In this document: positions 3,763-40,434 of the stretch, in pieces
How the letters are laid out: each line of letters begins with the position of its first letter
Numbering within the stretch: the stretch's first letter is position 1
Assembly: GCA_044343935.1 (NCBI GenBank)
Contig: JBIJDU010000001.1
Coordinates: 29,151-93,150 of the forward strand
Reading direction: 5' to 3'
Origin: Candidatus Nanopelagicales bacterium
GTDB lineage: Bacteria; Actinomycetota; Actinomycetes; S36-B12; UBA5976
DNA length: 64,000 bases
The notes under the pieces: model-generated
What the model saw: only the letters and a program-made list of their open reading frames with translations
The model's database searches: none
Told to the model about the DNA's origin: nothing
Program-made: the position numbers and the translations under genes

Positions 3763-4470
3763 ATGACAGTCTTAGTAGTAGATGACGATCGTGCGATTCG
3801 AGACGCGGTGATGCGCGCTATCAAGTTTGATGGCATGGAGTGCGAAGCTGTTGCAACTGCTCGCGAGGCCTTGCAATACATCAATGGCGAGCGTGGGAAG
3901 CGGCCAGACTTAGTGATCTTGGATCTTGGTCTGCCTGATTTAGATGGTCTTGAGGTAGTTCGGCAGGTCCGGGCTAAAGGTGATGACTTACCAATATTGG
4001 TATTAACAGCACGGACTCAAATTTCGGATCGAGTGGCAGGGTTAGATGCCGGGGCGGATGACTATTTACCAAAACCCTTTGCGCTACCTGAGTTATTGGC
4101 ACGAGTCAGGGCGTTGCTGCGCCGGATTCAAATTGATGCAACACCATCTGGCGTAGTGCCAAGCGGTGAGGTTTATCAAATCGAAGATTTAATTGTTGAT
4201 TGTGGTGCATACCGGGCTTCTCGAAATGGCAGACATTGCAATTTAACAAGAACTGAATTCTCGCTATTGGAAGTGCTGGCAAAAAATGCTGGCAAAGTTG
4301 TGCCGCGAGATATGTTACTGGAAAAAGTGTGGGGCTGGGCAAGTCCAACATTGAGTAATGGTCTAGATGTTTACATTGGCTATCTTCGAAAAAAACTTGA
4401 AGAGGGCGGCGAACCTCGACTAGTACAGACGGTTCGCGGCGTTGGTTACGTACTGCGCCTAGAGGAGTAG
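3763..4470 (+). CDS. mprA: OmpR-family response regulator, MprA-like
   Basis: Receiver plus winged-helix domains. GDDLPILVLTAR...RVAGLDAGADDYLPKPFAL and GEPRLVQTVRGVGYVLR closely resemble M. tuberculosis MprA as I remember it. The start was moved from the track's TTG 3736 to ATG 3763 (MTVLVVDD). Confidence 0.85.
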   Translation: MTVLVVDDDRAIRDAVMRAIKFDGMECEAVATAREALQYINGERGKRPDLVILDLGLPDLDGLEVVRQVRAKGDDLPILVLTARTQISDRVAGLDAGADDYLPKPFALPELLARVRALLRRIQIDATPSGVVPSGEVYQIEDLIVDCGAYRASRNGRHCNLTRTEFSLLEVLAKNAGKVVPRDMLLEKVWGWASPTLSNGLDVYIGYLRKKLEEGGEPRLVQTVRGVGYVLRLEE

Positions 4471-6083: not shown

Positions 6084-7367
6084 TTAACGCTTAGTGATTG
6101 GTGCGTAATCGCGCTGCGTCTCACCAATATAAATCTGACGTGGACGACCAATTCGAGTACTTGGGTCCTCAATCATTTCGCGCCATTGGGCAATCCAGCC
6201 AGGTAGCCGGCCTAGTGCAAATAGCACGGTGAACATCTTGGTTGGGAAGCCCATCGCTTTGTAAATAACACCGGTGTAGAAATCAACGTTTGGATAAAGT
6301 TTGCGCTCAACAAAGTAATCATCCTTCAGCGCCGCTTCCTCGAGTTTCAGCGCAATATCAAGGAGTGGATCACTAACACCAAGTTCTTTAAGCACCTGAT
6401 CAGCAGCATTCTTAATGATTTTGGCGCGAGGGTCGTAATTTTTGTAAACGCGGTGGCCAAAGCCCATCAATCGAGCAGTTGAATCTTTAGACTTGACTTT
6501 TTCAATGAACTTTTCAACCGATTCACCAGAATGTTGAATCTCTTCCAGCATTTCTAGCACCGCTTGATTCGCGCCACCATGAAGCGGGCCGAATAGCGCA
6601 GATATGCCACCGGCAACCGAAGCAAATAGATTGGCATGTGATGAGCCAATCATCCTTACAGTTGATGTAGAGCAATTCTGTTCATGATCTGCGTGCAGGA
6701 TGAATAACAGGTCTAGTGCCTTTGCGACAACCGGGTTCACTTCGTATTTCTCAGCTGGCACCGAGAAGGTCATTTGCAGGAAGTTTGAGACATAATCCAA
6801 GTTGTTATCTGGATATGGGAACGGTTGACCTAATGATTTGCGCAGGGAATATGCCGCAATGGTTGGAACCTTGGCCAATAAACGAATGGTTGAGATTTCA
6901 ACTTGCTGCTGATCAAATGGATCTAAGGAATCTTGATAAAAAGTAGACAATGCATTGACTGCACTAGCTAGAACTGGCATTGGATGTGCATCGCGAGGAA
7001 AGCCAGAGAAAAATCCTTTTAGATCCTCATGCAACATTGTGTGCATTCGAATGTTTTCTGTGAATACTTCAAGTTGGGTCACCGTAGGTAATTCACCGTA
7101 AATCAACAAGTAGGAAACCTCAAGAAATGAAGACTTTTCGGCTAATTGATCAATTGGGTAGCCACGGTAGCGCAGAACCCCAGCGTCACCATCGAGATAA
7201 GTGATTGCTGATTTAGTTGTTGCAGTATTTCCAAAACCATTGTCATAGGTAATGTGATTAGTAGTGGTTAAAAGTTTTGAAATGTCTAGCGCGGCGGGAC
7301 CTTCAGTGGCGGCAATCACCGGTAAATCGAGAGAATTATTTGGGGTATTAATCTGACCCTGCGACAT
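6084..7367 (-). CDS. gltA: citrate synthase (type II)
   Basis: 427 aa with the motifs GPLHGGAN, MGFGHRVYK and DPR. RBS GGAGGAAAT lies upstream of the ATG. Confidence 0.95.
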   Translation of the reverse strand: MSQGQINTPNNSLDLPVIAATEGPAALDISKLLTTTNHITYDNGFGNTATTKSAITYLDGDAGVLRYRGYPIDQLAEKSSFLEVSYLLIYGELPTVTQLEVFTENIRMHTMLHEDLKGFFSGFPRDAHPMPVLASAVNALSTFYQDSLDPFDQQQVEISTIRLLAKVPTIAAYSLRKSLGQPFPYPDNNLDYVSNFLQMTFSVPAEKYEVNPVVAKALDLLFILHADHEQNCSTSTVRMIGSSHANLFASVAGGISALFGPLHGGANQAVLEMLEEIQHSGESVEKFIEKVKSKDSTARLMGFGHRVYKNYDPRAKIIKNAADQVLKELGVSDPLLDIALKLEEAALKDDYFVERKLYPNVDFYTGVIYKAMGFPTKMFTVLFALGRLPGWIAQWREMIEDPSTRIGRPRQIYIGETQRDYAPITKR

Positions 7368-35636: not shown

Positions 35637-36929
<1,293 letters not shown>

Positions 36930-36931
36930 TC

Positions 36932-37402
36932 GTGGCTAAAGATTCGAAACCCAACATTCGTCAGTTGGCACAACTGCCAACTGGTCGTGGTGTTATCTTG
37001 GGAATCACCTTGTTAGTTATTGTGGCCAGCATGGCAGTTCCGGCTCGCACCTTGCTGCAGCAGCGACTTGAAATTGCACAACTAGAGCGCGAAAATGCTC
37101 AGATGCTGGCTGAAGTGGAATCATTGCGAGAACAAGTTGTGAGATGGTCCGATCAGGCATATGTGATTGCTCAAGCACGAGAGCGATTGCATCTAGTTAT
37201 GCCTGGAGAAATTGCATATGTGGTTTTGGATCCGACCGAAGTTGGCGAAAATGCAGTGCGCGCAAAGTTTGTGGCAGCCGAAGCCATTACAACTAACCCT
37301 TGGTACGCCAACTTATGGCAATCGGCAGTGATTGCTGGCTTGGGTGATGCACCTGCCGGCGAGAAATTGCCAACGTCGCTCCCAGTTGAGAGCAACAATT
37401 AA
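36932..37402 (+). CDS. septum formation initiator FtsB/DivIC family
   Basis: Single TM segment followed by a coiled coil (LEIAQLERENAQMLAEVESLREQV). Conserved position after eno. Confidence 0.8.
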   Translation: MAKDSKPNIRQLAQLPTGRGVILGITLLVIVASMAVPARTLLQQRLEIAQLERENAQMLAEVESLREQVVRWSDQAYVIAQARERLHLVMPGEIAYVVLDPTEVGENAVRAKFVAAEAITTNPWYANLWQSAVIAGLGDAPAGEKLPTSLPVESNN

Positions 37403-37404
37403 TT

Positions 37405-37899
37405 GTGACTGTATCTGATGCTGATTTAACGGCAATTGCGACTCAATTAGGCAGAGCTCCTCGTGGCGTAAGAGCGATCGCGTTTCGCTGCCCATGTGGC
37501 AAGCCAGCGGTAATTGAAAATGAACCACGATTGCCAGATGGCGAACCATTTCCAACTTTGTTTTATGCCACCTGCCCTAAGTTAAACGCTGCTATTGGCA
37601 CGCTAGAAGGTAGCGGACTGATGAAAGAGTTAGAAAATAACTTAGCTGAGGATCAGGAGTTGGCTAATCGTTATCAATTAGCTCATCAAGATTATTTGAA
37701 TCGCCGAAATGCAATTGAGGTGCTGCCCGAGAAACTTGAGTTTTCGGCAGGTGGCATGCCTGATCGAGTTAAATGTTTACATGCCCTCATTGCTCATTCG
37801 CTGGCTGCTGGCGATGGCGTAAATCCGATAGGTGAATTAGCGTTAGTTAAGTTATCAAATTGGTGGGAATCGGGAGAGTGCGTTAATGACGGACAATGA
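37405..37899 (+). CDS. DUF501-family protein
   Basis: CPCGKP...FPTLFYATCPKLN pattern and the conserved position between ftsB and ppx. Confidence 0.75.
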   Translation: MTVSDADLTAIATQLGRAPRGVRAIAFRCPCGKPAVIENEPRLPDGEPFPTLFYATCPKLNAAIGTLEGSGLMKELENNLAEDQELANRYQLAHQDYLNRRNAIEVLPEKLEFSAGGMPDRVKCLHALIAHSLAAGDGVNPIGELALVKLSNWWESGECVNDGQ

Positions 37900-38824
37900 A
37901 ATTGTGGCGGCAATTGATTGCGGCACAAATTCGATCCGATTGTTGGTAGCTGAAGTTCAACCAGATGGCTCGCTAAAGGAATTACATCGACAAATTGAGA
38001 TCGTTCGTTTAGGTGAAGGTGTCGATAAGACTGGAGAATTCTCAATTGACGCAATTGAGCGAACCGTTCGGGTAGCAGCGCAGTACTCTGATATTTTGGG
38101 AAAACTAGGGGCAACCAAAGTTAGATTTGGCGCTACCAGCGCAACTAGAGATGCAGCAAATCGACATTTGTTTGTTATTCCAATTGAAGAAATATTTGGA
38201 ATTACGCCAGAAGTTATTTCTGGTACCGAAGAAGCTGCATTATCTTTTATTGGCGCGACAAAATCTTTAATTCAGCGCGGTAAGTTAAATGAACCGCCTT
38301 ATTTAGTGGTTGATATTGGTGGCGGATCAACTGAGTTTGTGCTGGGCGAAAGCGCACCTAGCCAATCCATTTCGGTAGATATTGGTTGCGTTCGAATGGC
38401 TGAGCGTCATTCCTTACAAGAATTGGTTAGTGAGCAGCAACTTTTCGCTGCAACTTCAGATATCAAATCTGCGATTGCAAAAGCGGCAGCAGCGGTTGAC
38501 TTAACAGCCGCAAAATCCATTATTGGTGTTGCCGGCACTGTCACTACAGTTGCAGCAATTGCGCTGGGCCATACCAGTTATGACAGTGAGAAATTACATG
38601 GGGCAGAAATAACGGCAGCACAAATCCATCAAGTAGCAGAGCAGCTAATGCTGATGTCACGGGATGAAAAAGCAGCGCTGCCAGTGATGCACCCTGGCCG
38701 TGTTGATGTGATTGCAGCCGGTGCGTTGGTTTTGGATTTAATCATGGCTGAAGTTGGCTTACCGAAATTAGTTGTAAGCGAGCATGACATTTTAGATGGC
38801 TTAGCGCTGAGTTTGGTGAGTTAG
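37886..38824 (+). CDS. ppx: Ppx/GppA-family exopolyphosphatase
   Basis: AAIDCGTNSIRLLV and VDIGGGSTEF ASKHA-fold phosphate motifs. Confidence 0.85.
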   Translation: MTDNEIVAAIDCGTNSIRLLVAEVQPDGSLKELHRQIEIVRLGEGVDKTGEFSIDAIERTVRVAAQYSDILGKLGATKVRFGATSATRDAANRHLFVIPIEEIFGITPEVISGTEEAALSFIGATKSLIQRGKLNEPPYLVVDIGGGSTEFVLGESAPSQSISVDIGCVRMAERHSLQELVSEQQLFAATSDIKSAIAKAAAAVDLTAAKSIIGVAGTVTTVAAIALGHTSYDSEKLHGAEITAAQIHQVAEQLMLMSRDEKAALPVMHPGRVDVIAAGALVLDLIMAEVGLPKLVVSEHDILDGLALSLVS

Positions 38825-39655
38825 ATGAAGGAGTTGCCGCACCCAATTATTGGAGGCAGTTTTTCATCTCCAGTTATGCCAAGCACTAACTGGCCGATGG
38901 ATGTGGCATTAACGCAAACACCGATAGCAAAATCTTTAACGCAAGTTAAAAAAATTGCAAATACCGTTGAATCATTAACTGAGCTAACGGCTGCAATTTC
39001 AGTTTGCCGCGCCTGCCCCAGATTAGTTTCTTGGCGCACTGATGTTGCGATAACAAAGCGCAAATCATTTGAAGATCAACCTTATTGGGGAAGGCCAGCG
39101 ACCGGATTTGGTGCAGCTGACCCAGCGCTGTTGGTAGTTGGGTTAGCTCCTGCAGCAAATGGTGCTAATCGAACTGGCCGCATATTTACTGGTGATCGCA
39201 GCGGAGATTGGCTTTATCGAGCGATGCACAAAGCGGGATTTGCAAATCAGCCAACTAGCGAACATGCTGGCGATGGCTTGGAATTGATTAACGCACGAGT
39301 GTTAGCAGCAGTGCGCTGCGCACCACCAGGTAACAAGCCCACACCAACTGAGCGCGATATCTGCTCGCATTGGTTTGCGGCAGAATTAAAGTTCTTACCC
39401 AATGTCCAAGTGATTATTGCGCTTGGTGGCTTTGCCTGGGATCAAACAATTTCAATGTTAACTCAGCTTGGTTATCTTGGGCCAAAGGTAAAATTTGGTC
39501 ATGGTGCATCAATTGAATTCACTAATCCTGATGGATCAGTGCTTTTGCTCGGCAGTTATCACGTCAGCCAGCAAAATACATTTACTGGGCGACTGACTGA
39601 AGCAATGCTTGATGACATCTTTAATCAGGCTAAGGTGCGCATAAATAGCGGTTGA
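38825..39655 (+). CDS. uracil-DNA glycosylase superfamily, family 4/5 (UdgB-like)
   Basis: CRACPRL iron-sulfur motif, GLAPAANGANRTGRIFTGD (family-5-like motif A) and HVSQQN. The ATG abuts the ppx stop (TAGATG). The N-terminal ~45 aa are unverified. Confidence 0.8.
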   Translation: MKELPHPIIGGSFSSPVMPSTNWPMDVALTQTPIAKSLTQVKKIANTVESLTELTAAISVCRACPRLVSWRTDVAITKRKSFEDQPYWGRPATGFGAADPALLVVGLAPAANGANRTGRIFTGDRSGDWLYRAMHKAGFANQPTSEHAGDGLELINARVLAAVRCAPPGNKPTPTERDICSHWFAAELKFLPNVQVIIALGGFAWDQTISMLTQLGYLGPKVKFGHGASIEFTNPDGSVLLLGSYHVSQQNTFTGRLTEAMLDDIFNQAKVRINSG

Positions 39656-39722
39656 TTTTGCGCATTATTCCCACCATCTAACTGGCAGCTGCGCGACCTA
39701 TCTAGAGTATCCCCTTGGAATT

Positions 39723-39798
39723 GCCCTCGTAGCCCAATGGCAGAGGCAAGCGGCTTAAACCCGCTCCAGTATGGGTTCGAGTCCCATCGAGGGCACCA
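39723..39798 (+). tRNA. tRNA with anticodon UAA (Leu codons UUA/UUG) but class-I architecture (5-nt variable loop); CCA encoded
   Basis: Hand fold of GCCCTCG-TA-GCC-CAATGGCAGA-GGC-A-AGCGG-CTTAAAC-CCGCT-CCAGT-ATGGG-TTCGAGT-CCCAT-CGAGGGC-A-CCA. The acceptor, anticodon and T stems are all perfect. See the findings entry. Confidence 0.8.
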
Positions 39799-40434
39799 TT
39801 AGATGCAGCGAACGCCAGTTCCTTTAAGACCGCAATAACCATTTGGCACACGATCTAAATATTGCTGATGGTATTGCTCAGCAAAGTAAAACTCTGGCGC
39901 TGCCATGATTTCAGTGGTGATCTCACCCAAACCGGAATTGGCTAGCGAATTTTGATAGGTCAACTTTGATGCTTGTGCTAATTCCAACTGCTGTGCCGAC
40001 GTGGTGTAAATAGTTGAGCGATATTGCGTGCCAACATCATTTCCTTGGCGCATTCCACTAGTTGGATCATGTTCTTCCCAAAACTTTATTAGAAGATCTT
40101 GATAACTAATTCTAGTTGGATCAAATACCACTAAAACAGTTTCGGCATGTCCGGTTCGGCCGGTACAAACTTCTTCGTAGTTTGGGTAAGTGGTGAAGCC
40201 GCCTTGATAACCAGCTGCAGTGGTGTAGATACCAGGCAGCTGCCAAAACAATCGCTCCACGCCCCAAAAGCAACCCATACCAAAGTAAGCAACTTCAAAA
40301 CCTGCTGGATATGGTGCCTGCAACGCAGTGCCCAGCACTCGATGAGTTGCTGGTACGGGGTAGCTGTAATTGTTTCGACCGGGTAGCGCAGTTGCAGCTG
40401 ATGGCATGGTGACGGGGCGACTAAAAATACTCAT
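39799..40434 (-). CDS. msrA: peptide-methionine (S)-S-oxide reductase
   Basis: GMGCFWGVE catalytic motif. The stop codon directly abuts the tRNA CCA end. Confidence 0.95.

Follow-up and report, generated by a model that had tools for sequence, protein, structure and literature searches.

The stretch of DNA analysed here (the window) comprises 64,000 nucleotides of contig JBIJDU010000001.1 of a Candidatus Nanopelagicales bacterium (assembly GCA_044343935.1, positions 29,151 to 93,150 of the forward strand), and carries on its plus strand, at positions 39723-39798, a transfer RNA (tRNA) gene for leucine with the anticodon UAA and a variable loop of only five nucleotides. The gene reads GCCCTCGTAGCCCAATGGCAGAGGCAAGCGGCTTAAACCCGCTCCAGTATGGGTTCGAGTCCCATCGAGGGCACCA, which corresponds to a 73-nt tRNA followed by an encoded CCA. 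ARAGORN calls a tRNA-Leu(taa) with boundaries exactly at 39723-39798, and the Rfam tRNA model RF00005 matches the full length with 58.1 bits (gathering score 29; E = 5.9e-10) and with the same fold that had been drawn by hand in an initial annotation of this DNA. Every detail of that hand fold (7-bp acceptor stem, U8 and A9, D arm, anticodon arm, 5-nt loop, T arm, A73 and CCA) is present in the sequence, and both the anticodon UAA and the armless structure are upheld by ARAGORN and by the covariance model. The thermodynamic minimum-free-energy fold recovers by itself three of the four arms, i.e. the acceptor, anticodon and T arms. The gene and its parts are the following:

39723 to 39798, plus strand: tRNA-Leu(UAA) gene of class I (ARAGORN, RF00005, ten identical assemblies, and a covarying family of 104 distinct sequences).
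39723 to 39729 with 39788 to 39794, plus strand: acceptor stem of 7 bp, GCCCTCG/CGAGGGC (in the family 7/7 pairs are kept, with 99.7% pairing and compensatory changes in 6 pairs).
Between the acceptor stem and the D arm, plus strand: U8 and A9 (read from the sequence).
39732 to 39747, plus strand: D arm with the 3-bp stem GCC/GGC and the 10-nt loop CAATGGCAGA, including C13, A14, A15, G18 G19 and A22 (read from the sequence).
39749 to 39765, plus strand: anticodon arm with stem AGCGG/CCGCT and loop CTTAAAC (sequence, ARAGORN and Rfam; compensatory changes in 5/5 stem pairs across the family).
39756 to 39758, plus strand: anticodon TAA, which reads UUA and, by wobble, UUG (ARAGORN; position 34).
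39766 to 39770, plus strand: variable loop of 5 nt, CCAGT (positions 44-48), with no extra arm (sequence; N-C-A-G-Y design).
39771 to 39787, plus strand: T arm with stem ATGGG/CCCAT and loop TTCGAGT (in the family the stem is 99.8% paired, with compensatory changes in 3 pairs).
39795 to 39798, plus strand: discriminator A73 (39795) and genomic CCA (39796-39798) (sequence; A73 is conserved in at least 90% of the family).

The long variable arm of the canonical bacterial class II tRNA-Leu (a stem-loop of more than 10 nt) is absent from the window tRNA; its core is nonetheless of the leucine type. The fourth pair of the D arm is a C13/A22 mismatch that leaves effectively a 3-bp stem, and U8:A14, the A15:U48 Levitt pair and A73 are all there. 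Across the 104 sequences of the family described below, U8, C12, C13, A14, the first G of G18-G19 and the A-G-A run are invariant, the second G is nearly invariant, and A15, U48 and A73 are found in at least 90%; A15/U48, A73 and the D arm resembling that of class II had been pointed out by the initial annotation, and they are conserved features. It had also remarked that neither of the window's remaining tRNA genes, identified here as Arg-CCT and Gln-TTG, encodes CCA. This is a variable trait, given that CCA is encoded in only 21 of 96 actinobacterial orthologs, as it is in the window tRNA.

The distribution of this gene was analysed by scanning species-representative genomes, one genome per species, with the pattern TTAAA-N7-CAGY-N3-GGTTCGARTCC, which spans from the UAA anticodon loop to the T loop with class I spacing. 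Among the 120 matches listed, 102 belong to Actinomycetota, and in 114 ARAGORN called a tRNA-Leu(taa) of 73-77 nt. The actinobacterial matches listed come from Mycobacteriales, Micrococcales, Propionibacteriales, Actinomycetales, Acidimicrobiia, Rubrobacteraceae and Nanopelagicales, with Frankiaceae and Geodermatophilaceae among the families, and include the genera Mycobacterium, Nocardia, Rhodococcus, Gordonia, Corynebacterium, Dietzia and Tsukamurella, as well as Nocardioides, Microbacterium, Arthrobacter, Cellulomonas, Demequina, Actinomyces and Rhodoluna. The 104 distinct sequences obtained have in common TAGCCCAA(Y)NGGCAGAGGC, the anticodon loop, the N-C-A-G-Y variable loop, the T loop and A73; the invariance of the T33-A37 segment is in part a product of the design of the search pattern. 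When these sequences are placed on the armless cloverleaf, 99.3% of the cells are paired and 16 of the 20 pairs show compensatory changes, with a covariation score of 0.651 versus 0.173 after shuffling and 0.06-0.14 with slid partners. No Streptomyces genome is present among the 120 class I UAA matches listed, though the genus is rich in species; this absence, which may depend on the sampling order of the scan, fits a class I scaffold for CAA and the class II bldA for UAA in this genus, although it is only suggestive.

Two records labelled as plasmids in PLSDB, NZ_LT559118.1 of Nonomuraea gerenzanensis (11.85 Mb) and NZ_LN868939.1 of Nocardia farcinica (2.66 Mb), are of chromosome size and hold the core class I tRNA-Leu(UAA) gene, in the case of Nonomuraea with a udg homolog upstream.

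The genomic position of the gene is also conserved. In the window it is flanked by the following features:

35652 to 39655, plus strand: upstream block eno, ftsB/DivIC, DUF501, ppx/gppA and udg (open reading frames (ORFs); Pfam labels on identical contigs; conserved synteny).
39703 to 39708, plus strand: candidate −10 element TAGAGT, 14 nt upstream of the mature 5' end (proposed from the TANNNT enrichment in orthologs).
39799 to 40434, minus strand: msrA, convergent with the tRNA gene (ORF; PF01625).

Homologs of eno, DUF501, ppx or udg were found at 53 of the 96 actinobacterial tRNA loci, always upstream and on the strand of the tRNA; in 67 of these 96 loci the upstream DNA extends over at least 2.5 kb, and the 53 syntenic loci are among them. 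The same synteny was seen at 0 of 18 non-actinobacterial loci. The window gene follows eno-ftsB-DUF501-ppx(-udg) in the same orientation and, because it shares the synteny of eno, DUF501, ppx and udg, represents the ortholog of a phylum-wide gene whose locus is conserved. In the upstream regions of the 96 actinobacterial orthologs, TANNNT hexamers are enriched 8-16 nt 5' of the tRNA (46 occurrences), which as promoter evidence read from the sequence is suggestive only; a strict scan for sigma-70 promoters and terminators around the gene found nothing. On the other side, the CCA end of the tRNA (39796-39798, plus strand) directly abuts the stop codon of msrA (39799-39801, minus strand), with no spacer and no recognisable terminator. 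Beyond msrA there are genes for a major facilitator superfamily (MFS) transporter, greA, DUF4307, and a deacetylase of the PIG-L/mycothiol type; leuS is not among the genes of the 64-kb window. The GC content of the window is about 47%, with no compositional break around the tRNA, about 92% of it is covered by long ORFs, and its matches are to freshwater metagenomes. The low GC, the gene content and these matches would suit an acI/Nanopelagicales-like organism.

The junction was further examined in independent assemblies and in close relatives. On 22 contigs of the JGI, ENA and Logan assemblies the neighbouring MsrA protein has exactly the same residues, and in 10 of 10 contigs examined, which come from independent metagenome assemblies of different samples and pipelines, both the tRNA (76 nt) and its upstream spacer (67 nt) are identical to those of the window. 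Found with the same spacer in 10 independent assemblies, the feature is far beyond chance, and the gene is not an artefact. A metagenome search anchored on Udg listed 80 loci, mostly non-syntenic Udg homologs at 50-60% identity, of which 8 retained the ppx/DUF501 context with enough sequence downstream. In a sister lineage found in this search, Udg is 74% identical and the tRNA 100% identical; in relatives of lower GC, with a Udg 61% identical, the tRNA differs by compensatory changes in its stems and the variable loop still has 5 nt. The comparison of the udg-tRNA-msrA junction across relatives, which the initial annotation had proposed, revealed no extra hairpin, and a tRNA-Leu(UAA) of 75-76 nt is present at each of the 8 loci with the ppx/DUF501 context.

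Codon usage indicates how much this tRNA would be needed. As had been anticipated, TTA is common in the window: it is the most used leucine codon, with 630 of the 2117 leucine codons in 63 long ORFs (29.8%, or 32 per 1000 codons), followed by TTG with 482, so that TTA and TTG together account for approximately 53%. In six conserved proteins, leucine makes up 54% of the homolog residues aligned with TTA positions, 57% of those aligned with TTG and 65% of those aligned with CTN, the remainder being V, I, A or M. Because TTA positions align with leucine in the same way as TTG and CTN positions, these alignments indicate that UUA is read as leucine in this organism and that nothing is recoded. Nor does the anticodon suggest a suppressor or recoding function, since UUA and UUG, the codons with which UAA pairs, are both sense codons.

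From these results we consider, with high confidence, that the window carries an ordinary chromosomal tRNA-Leu(UAA) gene, which encodes the standard actinobacterial decoder of UUA and UUG. A tRNA of this kind is already known, both in the literature (PMC6614811, PMC11541572) and in tRNA databases. In Actinomycetota, the leucine tRNAs that read UUA and UUG (UUR), with anticodons UAA and CAA, are of class I and have the N-C-A-G-Y loop, and only the readers of CUN carry the long arm; the UUR readers keep the leucine-type D arm (3-bp stem, C13/A22, A14, A15 and G18G19), A15:U48 and A73. The window tRNA has the 5-nt N-C-A-G-Y loop, the leucine-type D arm, the anticodon, the covariation and the synteny that define this group. 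The statement in the initial annotation that every bacterial tRNA-Leu belongs to class II does not hold, in view of the mycobacterial Leu-TAA and Leu-CAA tRNAs of 74 nt (PMC11541572) and of the tRNA-Leu(CAA) of Streptomyces coelicolor (PMC6614811).

Several points weigh against this assignment or narrow it. Leucylation is deduced from homology, identity elements and codon-to-residue alignments, and the proposals that this would be the sole UAA tRNA, and what the status of a CAA paralog may be, are argued from the mycobacterial sets together with the 64-kb window. The scan pattern demanded CAGY and a fixed spacing and yielded at least 120 loci, hence the frequencies per phylum represent a sample and not a census. 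In addition, the window tRNA has C38 (39760, loop CUUAAAC) and an encoded CCA, whereas most orthologs have A38 (CUUAAAA) and no CCA. C38 is also found in a minority of the orthologs, and we regard C38 and the encoded CCA as minor lineage traits. The run A36-A37-A38 is the usual recognition context of MiaA for the formation of N6-isopentenyladenosine at position 37 (i6A37), and the i6A37 modification state may differ between the C38 and A38 subgroups.

The expression and function of the gene can be envisaged as follows. It would probably be transcribed from its own −10-like element TAGAGT, or by read-through from udg, and its short 5' leader would be removed by RNase P; the encoded CCA would spare the step of CCA addition. 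A single leucyl-tRNA synthetase (LeuRS) would leucylate the tRNA through contacts with its elbow, core and acceptor end, with no need of a variable arm, as the LeuRS of S. coelicolor does with tRNA-Leu(CAA) in vitro. U34 would then read UUA and, by wobble, UUG.

An alternative is that the gene specifies a tRNA that is supernumerary or serves recoding, either carrying an amino acid other than leucine or having a non-translational role, and that a class II tRNA-Leu(UAA) is encoded elsewhere in the genome. This idea, already raised in the initial annotation, is favoured by the fact that the evidence is confined to a 64-kb window of the genome, and by the encoded CCA, which sets this tRNA apart from the other two in the window. 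However, the encoding of CCA varies freely among the orthologs (21/96), TTA aligns with leucine as well as TTG and CTN do, the class I gene is the only UAA tRNA gene in the complete mycobacterial sets (PMC11541572), the leucine-type A73, A14, A15:U48 and G18G19 are conserved, and the tRNA is 100% conserved across a pair of species in which Udg differs by 26%. The recoding variant is contradicted by the alignment of TTA positions with leucine, and a supernumerary copy is unlikely given the conserved orthologous locus and the mycobacterial leucine sets with one gene per anticodon; taken as a whole we judge this alternative very improbable.

It could also be proposed that a class II tRNA-Leu(UAA) has recently lost its extra arm by minimisation in a streamlined freshwater actinobacterium. 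The window is of low GC, compact and, as mentioned, about 92% covered by long ORFs, and the D arm retains the class II leucine layout. In contrast with the expectation for a lineage-specific event, the same armless gene occupies the same locus in large, high-GC genomes, i.e. those of Nocardia, Rhodococcus, Mycobacterium, Nocardioides and the 11.85-Mb Nonomuraea, and also in Acidimicrobiia and Rubrobacteraceae, and the common N-C-A-G-Y loop together with the synteny speak against independent convergent losses. Since the same armless gene is found at the same locus across orders, any loss of the arm predates the radiation of the phylum. The suggestion of the initial annotation that this is a minimised, class I-like tRNA-Leu of a streamlined lineage was therefore correct regarding the class I-like structure and failed regarding streamlining, and we consider a recent, lineage-specific loss very improbable.

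Class I tRNA-Leu(UAA) genes with the same D arm and N-C-A-G-Y loop are also found outside Actinomycetota, none of them with the actinobacterial synteny. These include loci from Planctomycetota (L075, L091, L103, L116, L119 and L177), from Rokubacteria, Methylomirabilia and a delta-proteobacterial metagenome-assembled genome (MAG) (L095, L113 and L167), and from picocyanobacteria (L159 and L189), Chloroflexi (L158 and L169) and Acidobacteria (L180); several of the non-actinobacterial copies are located in Gly-Cys-Leu or Cys-Leu tRNA clusters. Among IMG/VR viral contigs, approximately 23 class I UAA genes (L003-L056) and at least 119 CAA genes (L190-L308) with the leucine-type D arm were found. 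Annotated actinophage genomes carry a 75-nt tRNA-Leu(caa), for instance Streptomyces phages of the Karimacvirus type, and very similar class I UAA and CAA genes are also present in Mycobacterium phages. At six loci (L092, L107, L111, L134, L157 and L178) only the 3' portion of about 45 nt, from the anticodon loop to the acceptor end, is present and ARAGORN makes no call; in L092 there are two such 3'-half copies 3.2 kb apart (3818-3847 and 7010-7039). These copies look like attachment (att) site remnants of elements that integrate into the tRNA-Leu(UAA) gene. In a Flavobacteriaceae MAG contig (L137), the region around 690-1500 is densely packed with at least ten tRNA genes, namely those for Tyr, Trp, Asp, Pro, Glu, Leu(tag), Leu(taa), Arg, Gln and His, with both leucine genes of only about 74 nt, a class I length; it looks like a phage tRNA array that was binned into the MAG.

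For the window gene itself, horizontal acquisition with a phage or another mobile element, or a role as the attachment site of such an element, is brought to mind by how common similar class I UAA and CAA genes are on viral contigs and among the phages of Streptomyces and Mycobacterium, and by the att-like 3'-half copies in six genomes. Against it, the gene is placed between core genes at a position that is syntenic across the phylum, the 64-kb window contains the 3' half of the tRNA a single time, the GC content is flat across the region, and msrA abuts the 3' end and so leaves no room for an inserted element. No signs of mobile elements were seen flanking the tRNA, that is, neither integrase genes nor flanking direct repeats, nor was the gene seen to be absent from the locus in close relatives. 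We consider this origin highly improbable. Lastly, an error of assembly or sequencing by which a hairpin of 10-20 nt was lost, which the short length alone might suggest, has a negligible probability and is refuted by 10 assemblies of different samples and pipelines that are identical over the tRNA and the spacer, by more than 100 orthologs, by the ARAGORN calls of 73-77 nt in 114 among the 120 matches listed (with the reservation that the pattern itself demanded class I spacing), and by the independent Udg-anchored search, where only genes of 75-76 nt were found at the junction.

Two readings go beyond the identification of the window gene as an ordinary actinobacterial UUR decoder. One is that the armless UAA tRNA might be the sole UUR decoder of a low-GC freshwater lineage that has lost the CAA paralog; the other, broader one is that class I UUR tRNA-Leu is phylum-wide in Actinomycetota, beyond what the literature found acknowledges. 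We put these readings forward as tentative and rather doubtful at present. If the tRNA were the sole UUR decoder, about half of leucine decoding would fall on an armless tRNA, a much greater load than in Mycobacterium or Streptomyces with their rare UUA codons, and this could imply a co-adaptation of LeuRS and of the modification of U34 and A37 (cf. C38). As for the distribution alone, class I UUR tRNA-Leu is far more widespread than suggested in 2019 by the wording 'rare case', used in that year's paper for the bacterial type I tRNA-Leu (PMC6614811): with Streptomyces as the exception for UAA, all the actinobacterial orders sampled have it, and so do several other phyla and numerous phages. 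For Actinomycetota, the textbook rule of an invariably class II tRNA-Leu in bacteria fails; an armless tRNA-Leu(UAA) in an actinobacterial genome gives no ground to suspect something anomalous, recoding or a faulty assembly, and low-GC actinobacteria would offer natural systems to study how LeuRS handles an armless substrate at high flux.

The closest known counterparts are those of mycobacteria. In the tRNAscan-SE sets that Xu et al. 2024 list for M. tuberculosis H37Rv and M. smegmatis (supplement file 5, PMC11541572) there is one gene per leucine anticodon; class I comprises Leu-TAA (74 bp, score 63) and Leu-CAA (74 nt plus CCA), whereas Leu-CAG, Leu-GAG and Leu-TAG are of class II, with 86-89 nt including CCA, and tRNA-seq gave full-length reads of 77 nt for both short leucine tRNAs (PMC11541572). 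The Leu-TAA of M. tuberculosis H37Rv (trna12, 1177396-1177469) is 80% identical to the window tRNA, and the Leu-TAA of both species shares with it the anticodon UAA, the 5-nt variable loop, the D arm TAGCCCAAT(T)GGCAGAGGC, A73 and the T loop; in other mycobacteria (loci L105 and L114) Leu-TAA is likewise located downstream of eno-DUF501-ppx. Unlike the mycobacterial tRNA, the window tRNA has C38 instead of A38, U5-A68 instead of C5-G68 and a D loop one base shorter, and it serves the commonest leucine codon, whereas UUA is rare in mycobacteria. The M. tuberculosis Leu-CAA is 85.5% identical to the window tRNA, with the same variable loop CCAGT. The identity of the window tRNA is 57-66% with class II Leu, Lys, Arg and Gln tRNAs, and 57-58% with the class II leucine tRNAs of M. 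tuberculosis.

In S. coelicolor, the type I tRNA-Leu(CAA) has the 5-nt loop A44 C45 A46 G47 C48 (Fan et al. 2019, NAR, PMC6614811) and is the only member of this kind with measured leucylation kinetics. It is charged by the single LeuRS of this bacterium with a Km of 0.16 uM and a kcat of 1.0 s-1; charging requires the five nucleotides of the loop regardless of their identity, U8:A14 matters, and the leucine-specific domain of LeuRS makes charging of type I tRNA-Leu possible (PMC6614811). The LeuRS of E. coli was found in the same work to charge tRNA-Leu of type II only. Compared by means of the positions quoted in that paper and of the mycobacterial sequences, this tRNA and the window tRNA have in common class I, the 5-nt N-C-A-G-Y loop (ACAGC in S. 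coelicolor), U8:A14, G18G19 and A73; they differ in that the Leu-CAA of S. coelicolor and M. tuberculosis reads only UUG and is a paralog at another locus. Our literature searches for an explicit description of a class I tRNA-Leu(UAA) in Actinobacteria returned only this work (PMC6614811), and such a tRNA is unmentioned in an identity review (PMC9976931) and in papers on tRNA modification in M. tuberculosis, on M. tuberculosis LeuRS, and on UUA in Streptomyces. The Streptomyces bldA tRNA-Leu(UAA), to which the window tRNA had been likened in the initial annotation, is a misleading model: both are actinobacterial, with anticodon UAA and codon UUA, but bldA is a developmental regulator of a very rare codon and belongs to class II, with a variable region of 17 nt that forms five pairs, and without G19 (PMC6614811).

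With the canonical class II leucine tRNAs, represented by M. tuberculosis CAG, GAG and TAG, the window tRNA shares the 3-bp D stem, AAT(N)GGCAGA, A14, A15, G18G19 and A73, and these M. tuberculosis tRNAs carry the same D-loop motif AATGGCAGA; the difference is their variable stem-loop of 13-17 nt. Animal mitochondrial tRNA-Leu(UUR) is also of class I, with anticodon UAA and A73, but unlike the window tRNA it is organellar and structurally relaxed. It has been reported that human mitochondrial LeuRS is able to charge the class I tRNA-Leu of S. coelicolor, and that S. coelicolor LeuRS does not charge mitochondrial tRNA-Leu(UUR) (PMC6614811).

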